IMG/VR virus record: IMGVR_UViG_2568526086_000005
Coordinates: 1-39,463 of that record
From: a virus
Taxonomy: Duplodnaviria > Heunggongvirae > Uroviricota > Caudoviricetes
Direction: 5' to 3' (one strand)
Length of the DNA: 39,463 bases
Under the pieces are notes generated by a model. The model saw only the letters and a list, made by a program, of their open reading frames with translations, was not told the origin of the DNA and did not search any database. The translations under genes and the position numbers were made by a program. Shown one piece after another: positions 1 to 9,050 of this stretch (position 1 is the stretch's first letter; each line of letters starts with the position of its first letter).

Positions 1-1260
1 TCATATTCCTATCGCCATGCCATGGGGCATGGATGGGGCAAAGTCCGATAATTTCTGGTTCAACATAGCAATCTGATCGCTGCTGCTGTCGGCCATCCAG
101 GCGCCGTAAACATTGAAAACCATCTGGGCGCTGGCATGTCCCATCTGGCTGGCAATGAAACTCGGGTTGGCCCCGGCAGACAGCGACCAGCAGGCGTAAG
201 TGTGTCTCGACTGATACGCCTTGCGGTGCCTTAAACCTGACCGTTTAAGCGCCGCATCCCATGAGTCACCAACTGAATCGGCTTTGTACAGGTAACCTAC
301 GCTGCCACTTTTTTTAACCAACTGAGGATTGAACACAAATGTACAGTCGTGAATGACCGTTCGGCCATACTCCCGCAGTTGTACCTCAACCTGATACTGC
401 CTGCCTAACCTGGTCATTTCCGCCTGGTTCCTCAAAGCGTCAATGGCTGGCTTGATCAGGTGAACGACCCTGTCGGTACCGGCTTCGGTTTTTGGTAGAG
501 TGAAATCACCGAGTTTCGTATAATTCCGGCGTATGGTCATCGTTCCAGTTTTCAGATCTATGTCTTCCCATGCGAGGGATACCAGCTCACCGTGACGTAA
601 TCCTGTGTATACCGCAATTGACCACAGGTTTTTCGTTTGCTGATGCTTGCAGGCATCAATGAAGCGAACGAATTCATCACGTGTGAGCGGATCTGGTTCT
701 ATCCTAGCCCTCTTTAGCGGCTTGATGCCGTTAAACGGGTTTTCACTCACATAGCCATTATCAACAGCGAACTGAAACATACCGGCGATCGTGGTCATGT
801 AGTAGTTTACCGTCACCACACTCAACCCTTTATCCCCCGCCAGCATATCCTTCCTGATATAGAGAAGCTCTTCTCTTGTCACAGACGAAACCAGCTTATT
901 CGCGCCAACCCTCGGCAGCATGCTTCTCACCACCGATTCATACCTGTTTATGGCATTAGCGCAGATCTCCATCCGTTTAAGCTCAAGCCATTTTTCAGAC
1001 AGATCTTTTACGGTGATATCTTTCTTCCCGATGCCGAAAGTTTTCAGATTTGGCGAGTTGGGGAATTGGGCCGCATAGTCAAAGGTCCCCATGCGGATAG
1101 CGAAACAAACTGACGTTCTCAGCTCCCCGGCCACCTTCCTGTTTTTAGCGGTGTCAGGGACACCGAGGTTTTCCCTGACACGCTTACCTTTAAAAATGAA
1201 CCATATGCGGAGTGACTTTCCGTGGTTCTCAACGCCCGTTGGGTATGATTCTTTACTCAT
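1..1260 (-). CDS. int: Phage integrase, tyrosine recombinase family (complete; stop codon at bases 1-3)
   Basis: 419-aa ORF with ATG at 1260. C-terminal catalytic-domain motifs typical of lambda-type integrases (..HGELVSLAWEDID.., ..RHTYACWSLSAGANP..). Sits at the prophage end, next to a small excisionase-like gene. Confidence 0.9.
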   Translation of the reverse strand: MSKESYPTGVENHGKSLRIWFIFKGKRVRENLGVPDTAKNRKVAGELRTSVCFAIRMGTFDYAAQFPNSPNLKTFGIGKKDITVKDLSEKWLELKRMEICANAINRYESVVRSMLPRVGANKLVSSVTREELLYIRKDMLAGDKGLSVVTVNYYMTTIAGMFQFAVDNGYVSENPFNGIKPLKRARIEPDPLTRDEFVRFIDACKHQQTKNLWSIAVYTGLRHGELVSLAWEDIDLKTGTMTIRRNYTKLGDFTLPKTEAGTDRVVHLIKPAIDALRNQAEMTRLGRQYQVEVQLREYGRTVIHDCTFVFNPQLVKKSGSVGYLYKADSVGDSWDAALKRSGLRHRKAYQSRHTYACWSLSAGANPSFIASQMGHASAQMVFNVYGAWMADSSSDQIAMLNQKLSDFAPSMPHGMAIGI

Positions 1261-1302
1261 TTATCCCTCCCGACGTCCAGGAGCGTTGCAAGTTTACCTG
1301 TT

Positions 1303-1548
1303 TCATACCGCCCGATCACCCAATGGTTGCTTTTGAGCCTGAATCCATGCGTCTACCGCTTTGCGGTTGTACATGCATTCGCTGGTTGGCTTTGGCTCTC
1401 CTTCAGGGGAAACGTGCTTATACTCACGCCCAAGCAGCCAGGATGATTTGCGGGCCCGTGTAATGGTTCCACGTTTCATCCCTGTGACTGCCATCAGCAA
1501 GTCCTCTGAAACCCATTCGTTTGGCTCGATCTGGATTATTGTCTGCAT
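1303..1548 (-). CDS. xis: Excisionase-like DNA-binding protein
   Basis: 81-aa ORF just upstream of int on the same strand. ATG at 1548 preceded by GAGGTG. Basic, small, in the xis position. Confidence 0.6.
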   Translation of the reverse strand: MQTIIQIEPNEWVSEDLLMAVTGMKRGTITRARKSSWLLGREYKHVSPEGEPKPTSECMYNRKAVDAWIQAQKQPLGDRAV

Positions 1549-1707
1549 GCATCACCTCTGCCGCACTCTTTAACTGATATAGAATTCCCAGCTACTGGCG
1601 ACGGAATTCATAACCTTAATCGCCATTTCAGCCGTTTCCCTGCTGTCGTAACACTGGAAATACATCTCCTGCCCAGTACGTTTAAGCTTCATCATTACCC
1701 ACATACA

Positions 1708-1926
1708 TCACCTCAGGTGCTTACTACGTTCTTCAAACTCTTCTTGGCAATCAGCACAGCGCTGGCATCCCGCCACCAGTTCCCGGCGCCGAGCCGCTAT
1801 CTCTTCCCCGCAGTCGCGGCAGTGAGTAGCCGAAACCGCCGAATGGTTGATGCGACATTTCGCAATGGCGGCTTTCCGCTGGAGTTCCGCTAACTCGTTG
1901 GCCTGATCGATGATTTCTGCGCTCAT
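1708..1926 (-). CDS. DksA/TraR-family C4 zinc-finger protein
   Basis: 72 aa with a CxxC-(17)-CxxC arrangement (CRDCGEE...CQRCADCQEE). Start overlaps the stop of the upstream gene (ATGA). Confidence 0.7.
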   Translation of the reverse strand: MSAEIIDQANELAELQRKAAIAKCRINHSAVSATHCRDCGEEIAARRRELVAGCQRCADCQEEFEERSKHLR

Positions 1927-2627
1927 GCTGAAACTCCCTTAACTGCCAGAAACGTAGCCATCGCTTTATCAACAATCTTCGAATTGTGGTATTTGCTGAT
2001 TGCCCAGGTGATAGCGAATAGAATCCAACGGAAGTGACTGGTATACGTTTTAAACGTCAGGCCTTCGCAGACATCCCAGGCGCTCCAACCAGCTGGCCAA
2101 TCAGCGTCATAAACAGCCTGATAAGCCTCCCATTCGTTATTGAAGTCAGCTCGGCATAAGTCGCGGACGATTTCGCGTAACACTGCTTTGTCGCTATCCG
2201 GTGTATCGTCATCGTCGTCCCAGTCTTCATCCTCTTCTGTTTCAGCATCTTCATCGTCCTTCAGGTAATCACTCAGAGACTCTTTCAGACTTTTGCAGAA
2301 CGCGTCGTGGTCATACTCTTTCGCCAGCATTTCTCGTGCCGAACATCCCGCGCCAGCCTCCAGCTTTTCAGCCCAGTAATGGGTATTGATTCCACCCTCC
2401 CAGGAGCCAAAAAAGTCGAACATGTCCGCGATGCGACTGAATGTCCAGGTTCCCATGTCGCCGGTTACGGTCAAGTAACCAGGCCATGTGATAACGTCGT
2501 AGTAGTAGCAAGATGTTCCCGGCTGCTGCATGCGCAGGTGGCGATACAGCCCATCGTCACGGATGATTTCCAGACGGTGAAATGCGGTATCAATCAAAAA
2601 TCGTGAGTCAATTTCGAAGAAGCTCAT
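1923..2627 (-). CDS. Hypothetical early protein with a long acidic tract
   Basis: 234-aa ORF with ATG at 2627, coupled by ATGA overlaps to both neighbours. Contains DDEDAETEEDEDWDDDDDTPDSD. Confidence 0.55.
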   Translation of the reverse strand: MSFFEIDSRFLIDTAFHRLEIIRDDGLYRHLRMQQPGTSCYYYDVITWPGYLTVTGDMGTWTFSRIADMFDFFGSWEGGINTHYWAEKLEAGAGCSAREMLAKEYDHDAFCKSLKESLSDYLKDDEDAETEEDEDWDDDDDTPDSDKAVLREIVRDLCRADFNNEWEAYQAVYDADWPAGWSAWDVCEGLTFKTYTSHFRWILFAITWAISKYHNSKIVDKAMATFLAVKGVSA

Positions 2628-2914
2628 AACTCGACTGCCTTACTCAGCTTCTCGCCGAGCGCAAAGATGTAGTCGCGTAACTCTTCCAGTGACTGCGCTT
2701 CTGATTGCATAATTTCACGATGGCAAAGTTCTTTCACCAGGTGCTCAAACTTGCTGTAATAACCGATACGACTTAGTGTTTCTTTCCCTGCATTCTCGCC
2801 TTCTTTGATAATTCCTCTTTCGCTAAGAATCAGGTCATGTTTGGTTCCGGTAATAACGTATTTTCCGAGGTCGATGTTTAGCTTCATTGTTTTCATTGTT
2901 AATTCCTCAGTCAT
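2624..2914 (-). CDS. Hypothetical early protein (start uncertain: ATG at 2914 overlaps the upstream stop; ATG at 2896 has the better RBS, GAGGAA)
   Basis: The ORF in the track starts at an alternative codon further upstream. The in-frame ATGs at 2914 and 2896 are the likely starts. Confidence 0.45.
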   Translation of the reverse strand: MTEELTMKTMKLNIDLGKYVITGTKHDLILSERGIIKEGENAGKETLSRIGYYSKFEHLVKELCHREIMQSEAQSLEELRDYIFALGEKLSKAVEL

Positions 2915-3200
2915 TACTGATAGCGCCATAGCGTGAGCGGTAATTACGCAGGCGCGGGTCAATTTCAGGGAAGTGGGTATATGTGGCTTTGCGGAATGGT
3001 CGGATTGATGTCTGGTAAATTCGCTCGCGTTCTTCTTTCTCTGCAAGCCATATACAATGGCGAAATTCCTTTTCCTCTTTCGTTTCCTGCGGTAGCGACA
3101 TTATCCGATCGTAGTTTTTTCTGAATTTATCCAGCACCTCCGATACGGAATTGCCGGAACAGCGGCGCGGGTCATCCGCACCATACAAAGGCGCTGGCAT
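2907..3200 (-). CDS. Hypothetical early protein
   Basis: 97-aa ORF, ATG at 3200 preceded by AGGAG with 6-nt spacing. Lies in the co-oriented pL operon. Confidence 0.5.
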   Translation of the reverse strand: MPAPLYGADDPRRCSGNSVSEVLDKFRKNYDRIMSLPQETKEEKEFRHCIWLAEKEERERIYQTSIRPFRKATYTHFPEIDPRLRNYRSRYGAISND

Positions 3201-3216
3201 GGTTTTCTCCTGTTGA

Positions 3217-3765
3217 TTATTTAGCTAACTTTTTCCAGATCGCTGAAACGTATTTGGCTTGGTGGATGGCATCATCAAGCGCGTTGTGGCGAGTTCCTTT
3301 GAATGGCATATCTCGCTTAGGGTCGAATCCTATTGCCTTCCCAAGTTCGACGATTGTTCTTACGTCGCGGTCATTCCACCACTGCCACGGAACTGGCTGC
3401 CCTGTCAGCGAATAACTGTTGCGGAGAATAACGCAGTCAAATGATGCTCCATTCCCCCAAACCTGAACGAGTTTGTGGTTGGCGTTCTTTATGATGAATT
3501 CAGATAACCATGAAAGAGCCGTTGAAAGCTCTTGAGTGTTGCTGGTTAGCGATTTTCTGGCTTCTTCACTCTGTTCCATCCACCATAAAATCGTTGAAGC
3601 GTCAGGACGCGCCCGATATCGCATTGATGACTCAAGCGAGATATTTACCGAGAACTCTTCTCCTGTTTCTCCGGTATTCGGGTCAAAGAATACCGCCCCA
3701 ATAGAAATAACTGGCGCATATGGCCCGTTGCCCATTGTTTCAAGGTCAACCATTAAGTGATTCAT
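3217..3765 (-). CDS. DEDD-type 3'-5' exonuclease (DnaQ-like fold)
   Basis: 182 aa. N-terminal MVDLETMG (Exo I-type D-x-E motif), later ..HNALDDA.. (Exo III-like). RBS AAGGA upstream of ATG at 3765. Confidence 0.65.
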   Translation of the reverse strand: MNHLMVDLETMGNGPYAPVISIGAVFFDPNTGETGEEFSVNISLESSMRYRARPDASTILWWMEQSEEARKSLTSNTQELSTALSWLSEFIIKNANHKLVQVWGNGASFDCVILRNSYSLTGQPVPWQWWNDRDVRTIVELGKAIGFDPKRDMPFKGTRHNALDDAIHQAKYVSAIWKKLAK

Positions 3766-3773
3766 GTAAGTCC

Positions 3774-4280
3774 TTAAATTGCGTGAATAGCGTGACGAGG
3801 GAAGGGGAGAGTTACTGGTGCAAAGGGTATATCGTCGTCAAAATCCATCGGTGGTTCGTTGTGTTGTGCTGGTGATGATTGCTGCTGTGGCTTCTGTGAT
3901 TGCCTGCTGGCTGCTTGTTGTTTGCTGTCGCCAATTCCGCCAAGCATTTGCATCACGCCATTAATTCCGACATGAACCTCGGTTGTGTAACAGTCTTGCC
4001 CTGACTGGTCTTTCCACTTTCTGGTTCTCAGCATTCCCTCGAAATAAATCTGATCACCTTTTTTCACATACTGCCCCACGACCTCAGCCAGTTTCCCGGA
4101 TACAGCAACACGATGCCATTCAGTCAATTCCTTTTGCTCGCCAGTATTTTTATCTCGCCATTGTTCTGACGTGGCTATTGTCAGGTTAGCGAACGCTGTA
4201 CCTGATGGTGAGTATCGAACTTCCGGGTCTTGTCCTACCCGACCAAGGATAATCACCTTATTTACGCCTCTGCTTGCCAT
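3774..4280 (-). CDS. ssb: Single-stranded DNA-binding protein with a 15-residue extension beyond the canonical DDDIPF terminus
   Basis: OB-fold N-terminus ([23 protein letters not shown]...), Gln/Pro-rich linker, then ..[11 protein letters not shown] followed in frame by [15 protein letters not shown] before the stop. Confidence 0.85.
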
Positions 4281-4988
4281 TTATGCCGCCTGTTTTAGTT
4301 CGTTAACTCTGATGTTCATTACCTGAACGCATTTAGCCTGCGCCTCCTCATTGCCAGCCATTAATTGCCAGTCACGCTGATAACGCTCGATGAGTTTTTT
4401 CTTGTCAGTTTCTGTTGACGCATAATCGCTGAAGTCTTTCAGGATTTGTTCGCAGTCAACCGATGGAGATTTCTGGTTGGTATTTTCTGGTGATGGTTTG
4501 TTATCTGATGCTGGTATTGCCCATCCCGGCAGCGATGGAGGGAGCCAGTAAAATCCTGTTCCATCCTTGAGTTTTGCCCTGTGCCATCCCTGCTTTTTAT
4601 CGAGAGATGTTTGTGCGAAACCTTCCTCAAGGTTATACAGATACCGACCGATTCCCCACTGAACGGCAGCGCGCTTCATTGCACCGGAACGACCACCTTT
4701 GACGGCTTCTACCTGCGTGTTTTCAGCAGCATCCCATTTGGTTACCCATTCGGAATCAATCTTTATTGATATGCCGCATTCAACGCCGCCGTTGTTGGGA
4801 ATATCGCGGTATTCATTGCGCCATCCTGCTTTGCCGCAAACATCGTCCAGGCGTTTCATGATTGCCCGGTTCGTGACATAAGCCAGCACCATAGCCCACA
4901 CTTTGCCATCGCGTGTTTTACCGCTTTGCTGTATTCGCCATTCGATATCTTCAGGGCTGAATGGCTCATCGAATTTATTCAAATCCAT
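4281..4988 (-). CDS. Rad52-like single-strand annealing protein
   Basis: 235 aa. Sits in the position lambda bet would occupy, next to ssb and the exonuclease. The Rad52-family assignment is from memory of the family, not from a search. The TAA stop abuts the ssb ATG. Confidence 0.6.
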   Translation of the reverse strand: MDLNKFDEPFSPEDIEWRIQQSGKTRDGKVWAMVLAYVTNRAIMKRLDDVCGKAGWRNEYRDIPNNGGVECGISIKIDSEWVTKWDAAENTQVEAVKGGRSGAMKRAAVQWGIGRYLYNLEEGFAQTSLDKKQGWHRAKLKDGTGFYWLPPSLPGWAIPASDNKPSPENTNQKSPSVDCEQILKDFSDYASTETDKKKLIERYQRDWQLMAGNEEAQAKCVQVMNIRVNELKQAA

Positions 4989-5242
4989 AATTCACCTCAG
5001 AATGGACACGGCCCAAGGAAATAACGCTGATTTAATACTTCGACTCGGGACAAATTAAGGCATACCCGCATTCCTTCGCGGTCGCCATTATGGCGATACC
5101 AGAGAGCTTTCTGCGTGTACATGCGTCTCTGTAACTTGCTCTCCTTCACTGTGGTTGCAAGTGACATGAATATCTCCTTCGTTACCGATTAATTCTTTCA
5201 TCTGACGAATGAATTCTTCGTCTGACCAGTTATCTGTAAAAC

Positions 5243-5395
5243 TCATTTCCTGCGATACCACGGAAGGTTGATAGCTGATTTCATCGCTTTATTTGCTTCA
5301 AGCCACATTTTGGAATCACCAATAAATCTGGCTATTACTGCTTTGTTCTGTGCAGCACGAAGCATCTGGTGATTGATGGCTATTTCATTGCGCAT
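5243..5395 (-). CDS. kil: Kil-like small protein (host cell-division inhibitor homolog)
   Basis: 50-aa ORF missing from the track (under 60 aa). ATG at 5395 preceded by GAGG. Translation MRNEIAINHQMLRAAQNKAVIARFIGDSKMWLEANKAMKS... resembles remembered lambda Kil (..TFIGDEKMF..). Lies immediately after cIII, as in lambda. Confidence 0.45.
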   Translation of the reverse strand: MRNEIAINHQMLRAAQNKAVIARFIGDSKMWLEANKAMKSAINLPWYRRK

Positions 5396-5511
5396 AATAA
5401 GACCTCAACTCTTTTCCATCCGTCACGTAATTTACGGGTGATTCGTTCAAGTAAAGATTCATTTAGTTGGAAGGCACCCATGCGAGCGCCTCCCGCGATT
5501 GCGTAAATCAT
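5380..5511 (-). CDS. cIII: CIII-like protein (FtsH inhibitor that stabilises CII)
   Basis: 43-aa ORF missing from the track. ATG at 5511 preceded by AAGGAA. Translation MIYAIAGGARMGAFQLNESLLERITRKLRDGWKRVEVLLCAMK matches the lambda CIII core helix ESLLERITRKLRDGWKRL as I remember it. Confidence 0.65.
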   Translation of the reverse strand: MIYAIAGGARMGAFQLNESLLERITRKLRDGWKRVEVLLCAMK

Positions 5512-5535
5512 GGGTGGTTCCTTATGTTGGTTTTA

Positions 5536-6504
5536 TTAGTAGGTTATTTTTGTTGCGAATACCTCGCCTTTTACGATGGCTGTTATGATATTTTTAGCAA
5601 CATCTTCTGATGCGCCAACCTTGATAAGGTCAGCAAGTATTTTGTTATTTACTTCTTTCCGGTGAGCTTTATCCTTTGCTCTACGCTCTTCTTCGTCCTT
5701 GATTCTTTTTTCTTCTGCTATTCTGGCTTGCTCTTTTGCTTCAGCATCGCGACGGATTCGTTCAGCCTCCTCCTGTGCTTTTCTGCGTTCTGCTTCAATT
5801 GCTGCCTGCTTTTCTCTTTCAGCTCGTTCTGCTGCCTCTTTTGCTTCGCGCTGTGCTCGTTGCTCGTCTTCAATGCGTTCACGCTCTGCACGTTCCGCTG
5901 CGGCCTTAGCTTCTGCTTCTCGCCTTGCTGCTGCTTCAATTTCGGCTTTTGCCTTTGCTTCGGCTTCAGCTCTGGCTTTCTCTTCAGCTTCTTTTTTTAA
6001 GCGTTCTTCATGCTCTCGCTTTTCCTGCTCCGCTTTGAGTCTTGCCTCTTCTCTTTGGCGGTCAAATTCGCGATCCATCAAAATCGCTATTTCATGGTCA
6101 GACTCAATTTGCTTTGCGAGAGCTTCAGCTGCTGCCTTAGCTTCTTCTTCGGCTTTAATCCGCGCCTGTTCTTCCTCATAATCAGTAAGAGGCTGGCGTG
6201 CCTTGGCTTTCAGCTCATCAAGGCGATCACGCACTGTCTTGCGGTTGGCATCAATTAGCTTTGGAATTTCCTTCAGTTCAGCAACAAGGTCTTTGCCAAG
6301 ACCATCGAGATATGTTTTCGTCTGCGCAACTTTATACGCCAGAGAAGCGATCTCCTTTCTGCCCTTTGCCGTTGTGATATCAGGCACAAAGGACATAACT
6401 TCACGTTCAACCTTTTGAAGGATTTCTTCAATCTGGTCGGCAGACTGAAATACAGTCATTGCATTTGCTTTTTCAATAACAACTAAATCTGTTACTTCAC
6501 TCAT
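5536..6504 (-). CDS. Hypothetical protein with a long E/R/K/A-rich predicted single alpha-helix or coiled-coil segment
   Basis: Start placed at ATG 6504 (GGAGG RBS) rather than the track's 6600, because an intrinsic terminator lies at 6517-6544. About 130 residues of KAEAEAKA / ERAERE-type repeats. Confidence 0.6.
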   Translation of the reverse strand: MSEVTDLVVIEKANAMTVFQSADQIEEILQKVEREVMSFVPDITTAKGRKEIASLAYKVAQTKTYLDGLGKDLVAELKEIPKLIDANRKTVRDRLDELKAKARQPLTDYEEEQARIKAEEEAKAAAEALAKQIESDHEIAILMDREFDRQREEARLKAEQEKREHEERLKKEAEEKARAEAEAKAKAEIEAAARREAEAKAAAERAERERIEDEQRAQREAKEAAERAEREKQAAIEAERRKAQEEAERIRRDAEAKEQARIAEEKRIKDEEERRAKDKAHRKEVNNKILADLIKVGASEDVAKNIITAIVKGEVFATKITY

Positions 6505-6516
6505 ATATCCTCCGTC

Positions 6517-6544
6517 AAAAAAAATCGCCCTCACATTGGAGGGC
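6517..6544 (-). terminator. Rho-independent terminator in the pL operon (tL-like)
   Basis: On the minus strand: GCCCTC-CAATGT-GAGGGC hairpin followed by GA and eight T. Confidence 0.55.
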
Positions 6545-6678
6545 AAAGAAGATTTCCAATAATCAGAACAAGTCGGCTCCTGTTTAGTTACGAGCGACAT
6601 TGCTCCGTGTATTCACTCGTTGGAATGAATACACAGTGCAGTGTTTATTCTGTTGTTTATGCCAAAAGTAAAGGCCGA

Positions 6679-7302
6679 CTATGCGGCCTCGGAAGGAAGT
6701 CCAATCATCTTATTCAAATCTTCTACCCGTAAAGCAGGAAGTGCTGTACTTGCTTTATCTGCTTCTTCTGGTAGCAATTCTTTGCTTTCAGGCCAAACTT
6801 CAATAAGTCGCTTAACTGTTGTGACTGAGTTCAAAGCAGCCCATACATTTGATTCGATATCCTTTTTCTTGGCTTCAAGTTTTTGTTGCAATGCGCAGAT
6901 TTCATCAAACCTTTTTGTTATTTCGTGTTCTGCGCTAAACATGCATTTATCTTTGGTCGGAGTAGGGAGCAATATATCTTCGCCGTTGCCGTCTTTCCCA
7001 TATGAATACCAGCCAACCCTTCTGCCAGATACAGTCAGATAAATTGAAGTTGAACGGGCATCGCATGAGTAAAATGAACATCCCAGCTTTTCAAGTTCTT
7101 CGCTTATAGCCATTAACTTGGATAATAACTGATCCACTTCCTCAGTTTTCTTTTTACCGCCAAATGCAATAACTCTGGCGTCAAGTGCAAGCTGGTTCTT
7201 TAACTTTGTTACTTCTTCAAGTTCAGTGAAAACCCCAGACTTAATTAAAGCGTTACGAGCAATTTCCTCTTTCATTCTCGTAGTTAAGCGGATTGATGAC
7301 AT
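6679..7302 (-). CDS. Hypothetical protein; terminator-flanked accessory gene in the pL operon
   Basis: 207 aa from ATG 7302 (RBS GAGAGGAA). Visibly AT-richer than the flanking genes. Intrinsic terminators lie on both sides. Confidence 0.55.
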   Translation of the reverse strand: MSSIRLTTRMKEEIARNALIKSGVFTELEEVTKLKNQLALDARVIAFGGKKKTEEVDQLLSKLMAISEELEKLGCSFYSCDARSTSIYLTVSGRRVGWYSYGKDGNGEDILLPTPTKDKCMFSAEHEITKRFDEICALQQKLEAKKKDIESNVWAALNSVTTVKRLIEVWPESKELLPEEADKASTALPALRVEDLNKMIGLPSEAA

Positions 7303-7415
7303 ATTAATTCCTCTCAAATAAGTGGTTTGCTGCCTAATTTCATTTTCTGGCGGCCTGAGCAAGTCACACCTATTTCACTGCGTGGCTTGCGGTAGTAAAT
7401 TATATTTGTTCAGAC

Positions 7416-7438
7416 AATAAAAAACCCACCGAAGTGGG
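7416..7438 (-). terminator. Rho-independent terminator (tL-like)
   Basis: On the minus strand: CCCAC-TTCG-GTGGG followed by TTTTTTATT, starting right at the stop of the upstream gene. Confidence 0.55.
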
Positions 7439-7777
7439 CTATGACCATTTTTTATTTGGATTTCGTTGGTGAGCGTGATTAACAACTCTGTGCATTACAT
7501 CCTCATATTTTTCATCTTCAATTTTTTCGACATCGCGAGGAAATGGTGTTGCTAATGCTTTGTCAACTTTGTCCATTGGTTCTTCATTAATCTTATATTC
7601 AGGACCGTCATCTATAGCATTAAATCCAGGTGTTACACCGTTTTTTAATGCATATGCTATCCTTTTTTCCCATCTCGCTATTCTCCTCCTGTCTCGAGAT
7701 GTAAGACCTCTATCAGATACTTTTCTGTTTTGTCCGCGGTCAGGATTAACATAAATAGTCTTTTTCACCATAAGCAT
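7439..7777 (-). CDS. Hypothetical small basic protein downstream of N
   Basis: The track ORF begins at a TTG. The first ATG (7777) lies 2 nt after the N stop. Product about 112 aa, no recognisable family. Confidence 0.45.
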   Translation of the reverse strand: MLMVKKTIYVNPDRGQNRKVSDRGLTSRDRRRIARWEKRIAYALKNGVTPGFNAIDDGPEYKINEEPMDKVDKALATPFPRDVEKIEDEKYEDVMHRVVNHAHQRNPNKKWS

Positions 7778-7779
7778 AC

Positions 7780-8085
7780 TCAATAAGCACCGTACGGTAG
7801 TTTACTGTACAATTTTATTTTTTGGACTGCATGTATTTTGTTTCCTAACGGGTTTGAATCTTTGTAATAAATACTTCTATTTTTTCGAACGACTTCTTCT
7901 TTCTTCTTGCAGCAAAGACTTCCTAGTGATGCTGCTTTGTCTGCTCTGACGCAACCAGAGAGCTTTAGCGCAATTTTTCGCGCCAGTGCTTCATTACTGC
8001 GTCGCTCGGCAATAAGTTCTGCTCTGCGAGCTTTGTAGCGGCTTTTTGCCGTACCTTTGGATTCTTTCCAGACAATGGTTACCAT
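7780..8085 (-). CDS. N: Antitermination protein N, phage-21 type
   Basis: ATG at 8085 (RBS AAGGAG). N-terminus MVTIVWKESKGTAKSRYKARRAELIAERR carries the arginine-rich motif I recognise as the phi21 N boxB-binding peptide. nutL lies just upstream. Confidence 0.8.
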   Translation of the reverse strand: MVTIVWKESKGTAKSRYKARRAELIAERRSNEALARKIALKLSGCVRADKAASLGSLCCKKKEEVVRKNRSIYYKDSNPLGNKIHAVQKIKLYSKLPYGAY

Positions 8086-8195
8086 GATGGTCTCCTTTAA
8101 GTGGCTTTGGCGCATGACGCGTCGAGGTGCTTATCTTCTCGATCGCTGTCTTGCAGCTGCAATTCGCGCCATCCCCAAAACCACTCAAGTTCTGG

Positions 8196-8235
8196 TCTCA
8201 ACGGTTAGGTTGAGAGTCCGTCGATGTTAAAGAGC
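8196..8235 (-). promoter_or_regulatory. nutL: boxA (8225-8235, GCTCTTTAACA) and boxB hairpin (8196-8215, TCTCAAC-CTAACC-GTTGAGA), both read on the minus strand
   Basis: boxA matches the CGCTCTTTAACA-type consensus. A perfect 7-bp stem hairpin lies 9 nt downstream, between pL and N. Confidence 0.7.
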
Positions 8236-8276
8236 CTGCCAATCTGTTCCGTTTGGCTTCCAGCGTCCTGCTGATG

Positions 8277-8311
8277 GCTTAAATTTAAGACTTCTTAATT
8301 TATTGGTCAAG
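8277..8311 (-). promoter_or_regulatory. pL promoter with overlapping OL operator
   Basis: Minus strand: -35 TTGACC (8305-8310), 16-nt spacer, -10 TTAAAT (8283-8288). Perfect palindrome TTAAGA-CT-TCTTAA at 8285-8298 overlaps the -10. Confidence 0.5.
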
Positions 8312-8375
8312 TGCATTTTTGAAGAAAACTTAATTTTATGGGCGTGAATTTAGTTTGTCTTTGATTTTTAACGGG

Positions 8376-8402
8376 AAATAAAAAAGGGGCGAAAGCCCCT
8401 TA
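8376..8402 (-). terminator. Rho-independent terminator downstream of cI
   Basis: Minus strand: AAGGGGC-TTTC-GCCCCTT hairpin followed by TTTTTTATTT. Overlaps the cI stop codon. Confidence 0.5.
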
Positions 8403-9050
8403 AGGAAGGTTTGCTAGCTTGGCATCAACGACAACGCCAATGATTTTACAGTTCCCATTGATTTCAATCATTGGGTATTGTGGATTGAGTGGTTTCAGGA
8501 ATTTTCTACCGGCATCAATAACTAACTTTTTGAATGTCGCCTCGTTTTCCCCTTCAAGTTTGGCGACTACCAGCTTTCCATTACGTGGTTCGACTTCTGG
8601 GTCGACGAGAATAATCATCCCCTCAGGAATACTCAGTCCTGCCGGGGCAGTCATTGAATCGCCTTTAACGTCGAGCCAAAAAGAGTCTTCAGAACAATCT
8701 ACCGTTGTGTCGTACCAGTTATCTATTGCACGCCTATGATATGGCTCTACAGCTTCCATCCAACATCCTGCGCTTACCCAACTAATTAGAGGATACGAAC
8801 CTCTTGGATCATGCCTGCTGTGATAGGCAATGTTTGAAAGACTATCCTCTCCTTTCAACAGGTAATCAGGGGAGCACTGCAAAGCCTTGGCTAAGGCCAA
8901 TAGGTTTTCGCCATTGGGCTCAGTTTCAGATCGCTCCCATTGGGAAATAGCAACATTAGACACGCCAACCATCTTGCCAAGGGCAGCCTGCCTAATCTTG
9001 AGTTCTTTTCTGCGAGCGCGAATACGCTCACCCATCAGTTGTGTATTCAT
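8400..9050 (-). CDS. cI: CI-type prophage repressor (N-terminal HTH, C-terminal LexA/S24-like autocleavage domain)
   Basis: 216 aa. HTH segment QAALGKMVGVSNVAISQWERSE, then an S24-like domain (..GDSM.. and a C-terminal lysine region). Divergent from cro across an operator region. Confidence 0.85.
   Translation of the reverse strand: MNTQLMGERIRARRKELKIRQAALGKMVGVSNVAISQWERSETEPNGENLLALAKALQCSPDYLLKGEDSLSNIAYHSRHDPRGSYPLISWVSAGCWMEAVEPYHRRAIDNWYDTTVDCSEDSFWLDVKGDSMTAPAGLSIPEGMIILVDPEVEPRNGKLVVAKLEGENEATFKKLVIDAGRKFLKPLNPQYPMIEINGNCKIIGVVVDAKLANLP

Follow-up and report, generated by a model that had tools for sequence, protein, structure and literature searches.

A probable Nmad5-family accessory cassette in a variable slot of a lambdoid pL operon

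The window analysed here is the whole stretch of DNA of one virus record (39,463 nucleotides; Caudoviricetes, IMG/VR IMGVR_UViG_2568526086_000005). Its pL operon contains the following genes and features around the Nmad5 gene, given from upstream to downstream.

7780-8115, minus strand: gene for the N antiterminator (PHROG 271), the first gene of the pL operon, with GTAKSRYKARRAELIAERR, which we take to be a phage-21-type arginine-rich motif
7439-7783, minus strand: HK022-type nun (PHROG 5632, 'Nun-like transcription termination factor', E 9e-71)
7413-7440, minus strand: intrinsic-terminator-like hairpin CCCACTTCGGTGGG plus T6ATTG, closing the nun cassette (terminator scan and folding)
7399-7404, minus strand: TATAAT without a -35 and without a TG extension, at the joint of the nun-terminator module and the N remnant (from the sequence)
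7314-7398, minus strand: 3'-terminal remnant of a lambda-type N gene, ending in ...IYYRKPRSEIGVTCSGRQKMKLGSKPLI, stop at 7316-7314 (alignment with N of HK542 and SH2026Stx1)
6679-7302, minus strand: gene for an Nmad5-family protein of 207 aa (Pfam PF18757, PHROG 1965, AlphaFold2 model)
6661-6690, minus strand: cassette-end hairpin AGGCCG...CGGCCT, then TTTACTTTT, overlapping the Nmad5 stop (terminator scan and folding)
6515-6670, minus strand: conserved non-coding element, homologue of the lambda ral-ea10 region (alignment and folding)
5536-6504, minus strand: gene for a 322-aa protein, the next in the pL operon and outside the cassette (PHROG 1376; TolA-like in RefSeq)

The 207-aa ORF had been reported in the initial annotation and was confirmed. 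It starts with an ATG at 7302, and a Shine-Dalgarno sequence, GAGG, is located at 7313-7310. Because the homologues begin at the same MSS as this ORF, a longer form of 227 aa starting at TTG, which is annotated in Kapi1, does not seem likely to be the product. It had been stated that the product belongs to no recognised family. This is not the case, as a Pfam scan gave a full-length match to PF18757 (E 7.8e-71; score 238.8 bits, cut-off 27), in which residues 4-203 of the protein align with positions 1-206 of the 206 in the profile. The protein also matches PHROG 1965 (E 1.9e-82), and the RefSeq label in E. coli prophages is 'Nmad5 family putative nucleotide modification protein'. An NCBIfam scan of the protein gave no match, and no similarity to Ral was detected in the Pfam, PHROG and NCBIfam scans. 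No PADLOC family matched the protein at E 0.1 or below, and no related solved structure was found.

Three motifs of the family are all present in the window protein, namely an N-terminal RLT...I..NA..K.G, a GG motif and a C-terminal WPE..ELLP ... DLN..IGLP, and they are kept in 28 close and 141 distant members. Conservation across the family is concentrated in the C-terminal peptide TTxKxLxxWPExxELLP ... LPAxxVxDLNxxIGLP, which is a low-confidence region in the AlphaFold2 model (pLDDT 84.6). Neither conserved catalytic-type residues nor an enzyme-like fold were found in family alignments and structure comparison. We infer a helical, standalone protein of about 200 aa that lacks a catalytic signature. 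It shares its full length and its ~200-aa standalone architecture with the family (PF18757, PHROG 1965), and there is no structural difference. The idea that Nmad5 is a DNA mimic was rejected, since homologues have pI values from 5.3 to 9.2.

Nmad5 is a known, widespread and named family that is biochemically uncharacterised. The Nmad names reportedly originate from Iyer et al. in 2013. The family comprises 2507 clusters at 50% identity; nearly all of the best 150 of these clusters are about 190-220 aa long with a full-length match, that is, they are standalone proteins. Copies that are 93-98% identical are found in mEp235, Kapi1, HK542, Stx1 phages and many E. coli prophages. When the gene plus its flanks was used as a query against 5426 complete E. 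coli genomes, 201 contained at least 80% of the query and 2253 matched at least part of it, with the 3' element alone in most of the matches listed. A position at the start of the early left operon is retained in diverged prophages (Providencia, with 47% identity, Dryocola and a JGI contig), and members are also found in lytic phages (Dhillonvirus, eiAU, PhiJL001 and Vibrio phages). A scan of genome contigs gave nine distant loci, and a scan of viral contigs with the alignment gave close relatives only. In distant relatives Nmad5 adjoins nuclease, SSB, polymerase or thymidine-hypermodification genes, which speaks for a role in DNA metabolism and not for one in counter-defence, and on a 100-kb contig, taken to be that of a lytic phage, its neighbours are genes for RNase T and RNase H.

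The N ORF upstream matches PHROG 271, 'anti-termination protein N-like' (E 1e-31), and has a weak match to Pfam N_peptide. The start of nun overlaps the N stop, and the window Nun is 96.5% identical to HK022 Nun (tblastn). Terminators had been described on both sides of the 207-aa ORF, and terminator-like hairpins were indeed called at 7440-7423 and 6546-6525. The upstream hairpin, with a folding energy of -10.3 kcal/mol (z -2.7), is followed by TTTTTATTG. Being the first terminator that the pL operon has here, it is the equivalent of tL1 by position; both are the first after N, although the sequence differs from that of lambda tL1, and the terminator in the window came with nun. HK022 nun has a hairpin of a different sequence at the equivalent place (CCCGCTCAGGCGGG plus TTTCATTTT), and the nun-terminator sequence of the window was not found in HK022.

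In HK542 and SH2026Stx1, N stops 11 nt short of the Nmad5 ATG. In the window, 7313-7352 is 100% identical to the matching stretch in 933W, HK97 and others. In this phage lineage, a phage-21-type N and an HK022-type nun cassette with its own terminator have taken the place of the old N. Of the old gene, 85 nt (7314-7398) persist, as the alignment shows, and now form the untranslated leader of Nmad5. The upstream terminator therefore belongs to nun, not to Nmad5. King, Madsen and Weisberg (2000) reportedly documented a lysogenic role for nun and found that its transcripts in the lysogen end behind the gene. In the window, nun and not Nmad5 is the gene with such a documented role.

On the other side of the gene, the cassette-end hairpin at 6690-6671 folds at -11.0 kcal/mol and is followed by TTTACTTTT in the window versus TTTATTTTT in relatives; in other phages, the same end of hairpin and T-run is found behind ral and behind a 140-aa ORF. 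The conserved element is about 97% identical to the lambda ral-ea10 intergenic region (NC_001416 33905-34086). A hairpin with a 14-bp stem at 6601-6640 in this element has a z of -6.7, and the whole stretch has a z of -6.35. The downstream terminator (stem 6546-6525, T8 at 6524-6517; -12.9 kcal/mol, z -3.9) belongs to this lambda-type element, not to the Nmad5 cassette. It would correspond to lambda tL2a (reportedly described by Luk and Szybalski 1983), which maps in the ral-ea10 region, the lambda DNA that is ~97% identical to the stretch holding the downstream hairpin of the window. The whole window gave no Rfam match at gathering scores. An sRNA in the 3' element was considered and rejected, as a search of 6300-8400 with E up to 1 gave a chance ToxT-thermometer match only, inside the ORF and on the opposite strand. 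AgvB (GcvB sponge) and Pas sRNA were rejected as candidates for the C/A-rich stretch, because they are located in the PR' moron region or elsewhere.

In related phages, the stretch from the end of N to the conserved element, which in lambda lies behind ral, is occupied by Ral, by Nmad5, by the two in tandem, or by several unknown ORFs. Among 62 such loci, 17 have Ral alone, 18 have Nmad5 alone and two have Ral and Nmad5 in tandem; several unknown ORFs fill the rest, and an internally deleted ral remnant is the sole content in three. In strain MS21324 the slot holds Ral and a 140-aa ORF, and the gene for the 322-aa protein follows the element there too. In 77 close Nmad5 loci, the preceding gene was N in 28 (intact, with a gap of 11 nt), Stx-type N in 13 (61 nt), Ral in eight (36 nt) and Nun in six only (136 nt). 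An intact N is the direct upstream neighbour of Nmad5 in most relatives. The preceding co-oriented gene ends 11-65 nt upstream in 52 of the 77, and therefore there is no room for a terminator and a promoter in these relatives. This speaks against the autonomous transcription unit that had been proposed. Each slot cassette is made up solely of a Shine-Dalgarno sequence, the ORF and a terminal hairpin plus T-run, lacks a promoter, and begins some 10 nt past the stop codon of the gene before it. At the joint of the Ral-Nmad5 tandem, where ...GGCCTTTATTTT meets CTTATTTGAGAGGAATTAATATG, the Shine-Dalgarno sequence alone travels with the gene, and the 5' boundary of the Nmad5 cassette is about 10-20 nt before the ATG. 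We conclude, with a probability of roughly 0.6, that Nmad5 is one of several cassettes that can fill a variable slot for accessory genes in the lambdoid pL operon.

Lambda ral sits in the same slot, bounded likewise by the 3' end of N on one side and the ral-ea10 element on the other. Both ral and Nmad5 have a Shine-Dalgarno sequence only, end in a hairpin with a T-run and are transcribed with or after N, but they have no sequence or fold similarity, and their products are of 66 aa and 207 aa, respectively. The two can sit in tandem and are thus neither strict alternatives nor simple functional equivalents. Nmad5 also resembles the lambdoid morons (lambda bor, lom and rexAB, HK97 gp15 and HK022 nun), which are likewise non-core, AT-rich, located near the immunity region and bounded by terminator-like flanks. 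It has its own downstream terminator (hairpin 6690-6671, terminator 6546-6525) and is inserted between genes that are adjacent in relatives, where the slot holds other cassettes. Unlike the morons, no promoter of its own travels with it: the cassette is promoterless, the sole -10 is private and outside, and Nmad5 is usually fused to the N transcription unit.

That the gene is an accessory one of the pL operon had been proposed before, and Nmad5 is indeed a non-core accessory gene. The best reading is that it is an ordinary early accessory gene that is transcribed from pL and depends on N. Where an intact N lies directly upstream, Nmad5 would be expressed along with N from the first transcript of pL. 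In the window phage, pL transcription would reach Nmad5 only after N permits read-through of the nun terminator (delayed-early), and Nmad5 would be insulated from any lysogenic nun transcript. This agrees with the initial annotation in that the gene is read through with N; Nmad5 is located between two terminators here and therefore should be read only by N-modified polymerase. Nmad5 would not be a defence gene of the lysogen. Since it is predicted to be a standalone helical protein with no catalytic signature and with its C-terminal peptide most conserved, we infer that the protein may bind a conserved partner and thereby act at an early stage of infection or induction.

The most likely role, though only tentatively proposed, is host interference or counter-defence, like that of its slot-mate Ral; it is proposed from the position and from a single study with indirect evidence on Dhillonvirus, a distantly related genus. 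In that study, a missense mutation in nmad5 allowed escape from the Tmn defence system, and deletion of nmad5 is viable and does not give Tmn escape; nmad5 appeared toxic to clone, and the protein there is longer (the mutated residue is K296) with its gene near capsid genes (PMC11846954). It is more doubtful that the slot is a hotspot of immediate-early counter-defence genes and that Nmad5 is a non-enzymatic inhibitor that would bind a host defence or DNA-transaction protein via its C-terminal peptide. The slot is not demonstrably an anti-defence locus, as its cassettes other than ral are uncharacterised and one of them encodes a predicted membrane protein. The evidence turns a would-be prophage defence candidate into a member of a named, widespread family, and the slot becomes a list of uncharacterised immediate-early genes that are cheap counter-defence candidates. 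Nmad5 is the most widespread gene of the slot, and one published study ties it to Tmn.

Exchange in the slot also bears on another explanation, in which Nmad5 is an accessory of phage DNA replication or recombination that, for example, loads or regulates a nuclease, an annealing protein or SSB, with no role in defence or counter-defence. Nmad5 swaps with Ral and unrelated small ORFs regardless of whether Bet, Erf, RecT or Rad52 follows, and its distribution in lambdoid phages is patchy, as judged from the 201 of 5426 E. coli genomes above. The neighbours speak for this explanation. In the Providencia prophage Nmad5 heads an operon with a 428-aa ORF and a 183-aa ORF, which we take to encode a Cas4-like nuclease (DUF2800-like) and a DUF2815-type SSB, respectively. 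RNase T and RNase H genes are its neighbours on one contig, and in the window Nmad5 is upstream of the genes for a Rad52-type protein, SSB, exonuclease and Abc2. However, a terminator element separates Nmad5 from these recombination genes, and nmad5 is dispensable in Dhillonvirus (PMC11846954), so that this explanation is unlikely.

The initial annotation proposed a unit with its own promoter that is expressed alone in the lysogen, similar to sieB, rexAB and bor, as a candidate exclusion or defence gene. For this, a C-to-A change would have made a working sigma-70 -10 element, and we regard it as improbable. The perfect TATAAT with a poor -35 was confirmed; it follows the terminator T-tract 97-102 nt 5' of the ATG and lies between two terminator-like hairpins. 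The best -35 at a spacing of 16-18 nt has at most 2/6 matches to TTGACA, there is no extended -10, and the promoter scan, which had been suggested as a check, made no call at 7404-7399. TATAAT is not enriched in the window (8 hexamers observed versus 13.7 +/- 4.1 expected), and a single intergenic one is unremarkable, no more than chance. Alignment with N genes places it outside the mobile Nmad5 cassette, at the recombination joint. A single C-to-A substitution at hexamer position 2 separates it from the TCTAAT found in the E. coli junctions that match best. This position is the most critical -10 base for sigma-70, and such a single change could in principle switch a promoter on. Relatives have TCTAAT, CCTAAT, CCGAAT, CTTAAT or CAGAAT at this site. 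Not one of 30 IMG/VR junctions, nor of 163 complete E. coli genomes containing the junction, has TATAAT, and the exact 28-mer around it had zero IMG/VR matches. It thus is a private one-base change at a recombination joint, present in no other sequence searched, and therefore is not a selected feature of the Nmad5 gene. A perfect -10 after a T-rich stretch can allow weak sigma-70 initiation, and there may be some lysogenic expression from ~7392. As a lesser variant of the hotspot reading, the private change may have just created a promoter that turns an early gene into a lysogen-expressed gene in the window phage.

The likeness to sieB, rex and bor was not borne out in other respects either. 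The lack of a PADLOC match and the occurrence of family members in lytic phages argue against it, as does the early gene ral being the sole characterised gene of the slot. In lambda, the annotated sieB gene and N are on opposite strands, so that sieB is not 'read through with N'. The site is close to the immunity region, as for rex, sieB and nun, and the whole N-nun-Nmad5 block is AT-rich, both of which are in favour of such a unit. The gene had been called AT-richer than its neighbours; this is only half true, as its GC is 0.405 versus 0.499 for the window (in the lowest 3.5% among windows of the same size), but nun directly upstream is more AT-rich (0.368) and N is similar (0.423).

It is very improbable that Nmad5 takes part in phage DNA base modification, although its name would imply this: the name was given because members adjoin genes for nucleotide modification, Nmad5 is listed in a thymidine-hypermodification cassette of M6-like phages and is labelled a 'DNA modification enzyme' without biochemical data in PMC11846954, but such a neighbourhood, which is a contextual trait and not a membership condition, is absent at the window Nmad5, where the neighbours are N, nun, the TolA-like protein, cIII, kil, the Rad52-type protein, SSB, exonuclease and Abc2, and no hydroxymethylase, kinase, aGPT-Pplase or methylase is found among the same-strand neighbours and pL-operon genes (window 1-8115), and a lone 207-aa helical protein with no conserved catalytic-type residues and no enzyme-like fold is unlikely as a catalyst.

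The 322-aa protein encoded after the element is rich in Glu, Ala and Lys. The hairpin at 6690-6671 over the Nmad5 stop is a third terminator-like hairpin, which had been missed in the initial annotation.

We revealed that the 207-aa ORF is an Nmad5-family gene, carried as a cassette in the early leftward (pL) operon of a lambdoid temperate phage. The operon is on the minus strand, on the 3' side of the cI-type repressor (8400-9050).

Features of the pL operon (all minus strand)
7780-8115: N antiterminator (PHROG 271)
7439-7783: nun gene, 96.5% identical to HK022 nun
7440-7423 plus T-run: terminator-like hairpin after nun, called by terminator scan
6679-7302: 207-aa ORF (Nmad5)
6546-6525 plus T8: second terminator, ending a 175-nt non-coding stretch, called by terminator scan
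Further genes, in order (window ORFs and mEp235 annotation): 322-aa gene, cIII, kil, Rad52-type annealing protein, SSB, exonuclease, Abc2, xis, int

The initial annotation proposed a lysogen-expressed exclusion or defence gene with its own -10 element, bracketed by two terminators and AT-richer than its neighbours. Both terminators fold more stably than shuffled sequence (z -2.7 upstream, z -3.9 downstream), but they originate from nun and from a lambda-type ral-ea10 element. GC is 0.405 against 0.499 for the window; however, nun is lower (0.368) and N similar (0.423), and therefore the whole block is AT-rich, not the Nmad5 gene alone. Taken part by part the observation thus holds; it carries little statistical weight, and one of its statements is not accurate.

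A perfect TATAAT is present at 7404-7399 (minus), but at 16-18 nt spacings its -35 shares at most 2/6 positions with TTGACA, the TG extension is absent, and the promoter scan of the window did not list it. The hexamer occurs 8 times in the window against 13.7 expected. The leader of the Nmad5 gene, window 7314-7398, is a remnant of an N gene of lambda type, namely its 3' end (...IYYRKPRSEIGVTCSGRQKMKLGSKPLI, then stop). We aligned the region 5' of the Nmad5 ATG with HK542, SH2026Stx1, PhiR12_1 and mEp235. An intact N stops 11 nt 5' of the ATG in HK542 and SH2026Stx1, and 933W, HK97 and many others share the final 40 nt of the N remnant at 100% identity. In the window, mEp235 and Kapi1, the N body is swapped for a different N, nun and a terminator. 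The recombination joint lies at ~7399 and is straddled by TATAAT; the hexamer there is CCTAAT in mEp235, CCGAAT in Kapi1, and CCTAAT, TCTAAT, CCGAAT, CTTAAT or CAGAAT in 30 IMG/VR junctions. The exact 28-mer containing TATAAT had zero matches in IMG/VR, and 0 of 163 complete E. coli genomes having the junction were identical to the window, the closest being one base off at hexamer position 2 (TCTAAT vs TATAAT). That the hexamer differs in every IMG/VR and E. coli junction compared indicates that the C-to-A change behind the perfect -10 is private, and that such a -10 is not conserved with the Nmad5 gene. The model of lysogenic expression is improbable: it now depends on this private -10 being active, and the comparative data lend it no support.

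Among close Nmad5 loci of IMG/VR (n=77), we scored the preceding co-oriented gene and its gap to the ATG.

Gene preceding Nmad5, gap to the ATG and number of loci
N-type ORF: 11 nt, 28/77
Stx-type N: 61 nt, 13/77
Ral: 36 nt, 8/77
74-aa ORF: 65 nt, 3/77
Nun: 136 nt, 6/77
Zinc-finger ORF (88-92 aa): 136 nt, 5/77
Other: 142-293 nt, 8/77
None found: no gap figure, 6/77

In 52/77 loci a terminator plus promoter cannot fit upstream, which argues that Nmad5 shares N's transcript there; judged from this layout, it must be immediate-early in those loci. The zinc-finger-like ORF (MTSKQVSYKCYCPLCGRKF...; PHROG 20899) of the IMG/VR loci L284, L314, L318 and L321 has the same gap as nun. Diverged prophages, too, have the gene beside the repressor, where the early-left operon begins: a Providencia prophage (47% identity), a Dryocola prophage, in which it comes after an N-like gene, and a JGI contig.

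The downstream terminator belongs to the ral-ea10 element. The intergenic region between ral and ea10 in lambda (NC_001416 33905-34086) is matched at ~97% identity by window 6519-6670, which contains both the terminator hairpin and a 14-bp hairpin (6601-6640; -22.8 kcal/mol, z -6.7). Lambda tL2a reportedly maps to this region (Luk and Szybalski 1983). At least part of the gene-plus-flanks query matched in 2253/5426 complete E. coli genomes; among the matches listed, most cover the element only, and only 201 genomes had 80% or more of the query. We searched IMG/VR by the N-end boundary and added loci already collected, requiring the element downstream, and obtained 62 loci.

Content of the slot between the N 3' end and the ral-ea10 element
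Nmad5 alone: 18/62
Ral alone: 17/62
Ral + 140/149-aa membrane-type ORF: 5/62
149-aa ORF without Ral: 4/62
83/91-aa ORF: 4/62
107-aa ORF: 3/62
80-aa ORFs, two unrelated types (DUF7446, n=2; shorter membrane-type form, n=1): 3/62
Internally deleted ral only: 3/62
156-aa ORF: 2/62
Ral + Nmad5 in tandem: 2/62
Ral + 80-aa ORF: 1/62

Slot cassettes begin ~10 nt past the preceding stop (TGAG, Shine-Dalgarno, ATG) and end with a GC hairpin and GGCCTTTATTTTT. The Ral-Nmad5 tandem joint reads ...GGCCTTTATTTT|CTTATTTGAGAGGAATTAATATG; therefore, the Nmad5 cassette carries a Shine-Dalgarno and no promoter. HK022 nun is the same kind of cassette, with its stop and T-run hairpin leading directly to the element, which is interrupted by IS903 in HK022 and by another IS in SH2026Stx1. 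Thus, the 'gene between two terminators' is two successive cassettes with their own end hairpins, followed by a lambda-type terminator. Cassettes share short boundary sequences, with CTTATTTGAG and a Shine-Dalgarno on the 5' side and, on the 3' side, a GC hairpin followed by GGCCTTTATTTTT (window 6661-6690; IMG/VR loci L006, L076, L201 and L335), and these look like sites of cassette exchange. No function is assigned to the other slot cassettes.

In this phage, Nmad5 would be transcribed from pL; N would be required for polymerase to pass the nun terminator, making Nmad5 delayed-early here and insulating it from any lysogenic nun transcript. Constitutive nun promoters were reportedly located by King, Madsen and Weisberg in 2000, with transcripts expected to end after nun. 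The promoter scan called no promoter-like site inside N. The arginine-rich motif of N, GTAKSRYKARRAELIAERR, is one we take to be of phage 21 type. This N and HK022-type Nun coexist in the window (7439-8115, minus), whereas HK022 is without N; the start of nun overlaps the N stop.

The product, placed in no family by the initial annotation, matches the entire Nmad5 profile (Pfam PF18757; 238.8 bits, cut-off 27) and PHROG 1965, where no function is assigned. With an E-value limit of 0.001, a profile search of 1.84 billion representatives found 2507 clusters; the best-scoring 150 among those listed were nearly all ~190-220 aa, full-length matches. PADLOC and NCBIfam gave no match, no related solved structure was found, and BFVD matches to the AlphaFold2 model (pLDDT 84.6) were only Nmad5 or unnamed phage proteins. 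The model has three long helices, a small beta-sheet, a long helix and short C-terminal helices. In both 28 close and 141 distant members, conservation peaks in the C-terminal 50 residues (TTxKxLxxWPExxELLP ... LPAxxVxDLNxxIGLP), and residues 183-207 are poorly modelled. No invariant catalytic-type residues were evident in these members, and pI ranges from 5.3 to 9.2 across homologues. We infer that Nmad5 is a binding protein, not an enzyme; it would act early, probably binding a partner via the C-terminal peptide.

We tentatively favour host interference or counter-defence as its role (probability about 0.35), because Nmad5 shares Ral's slot and expression mode and is patchy and dispensable. 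Moreover, an nmad5 missense change lets a Dhillonvirus escape Tmn, whereas deleting the gene gives no escape, and nmad5 seemed to be toxic (PMC11846954). The main rival, a replication or recombination accessory, is based on neighbours in distant phages; members are found in lytic phages too. Direct base modification is unlikely here: E. coli proteins that are the same or nearly the same go by the RefSeq name 'Nmad5 family putative nucleotide modification protein' and the gene also occurs within a thymidine-hypermodification cassette of M6-like phages, but no recognisable modification enzyme is adjacent or elsewhere in the part of the pL operon examined (window 1-8115). The family and this mosaic region of the lambdoid early-left operon are known; what keeps Nmad5 and its slot-mates of interest is that they make up a small, well-defined group of uncharacterised immediate-early accessory genes.

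Antisense to Nmad5, a 133-aa ORF (6641-7042, plus) has an annotated counterpart in HK542 (HK542c101) and is probably not a gene. The element at 6515-6700 (minus) is strongly structured (z -6.35), and no Rfam family was found for it. A short ORF with ATG at 6600 and a GGAG Shine-Dalgarno (MSLVTKQEPTCSDYWKSSLPS...; 6504-6600, minus) crosses the terminator hairpin and is kept in lambda and mEp235. The lambda version, read from aligned sequence, ends after ~30 codons; in the window its frame runs on into the 322-aa gene to make a 354-aa ORF (5536-6600). The 322-aa gene (5536-6504, minus) comes after the terminator element regardless of slot cassette. Its product (PHROG 1376; no Pfam match) has a long Glu/Ala/Lys/Arg-rich middle region, probably a coiled-coil, and its relatives in RefSeq are named 'cell envelope biogenesis protein TolA' and are frequently annotated as pseudogenes.
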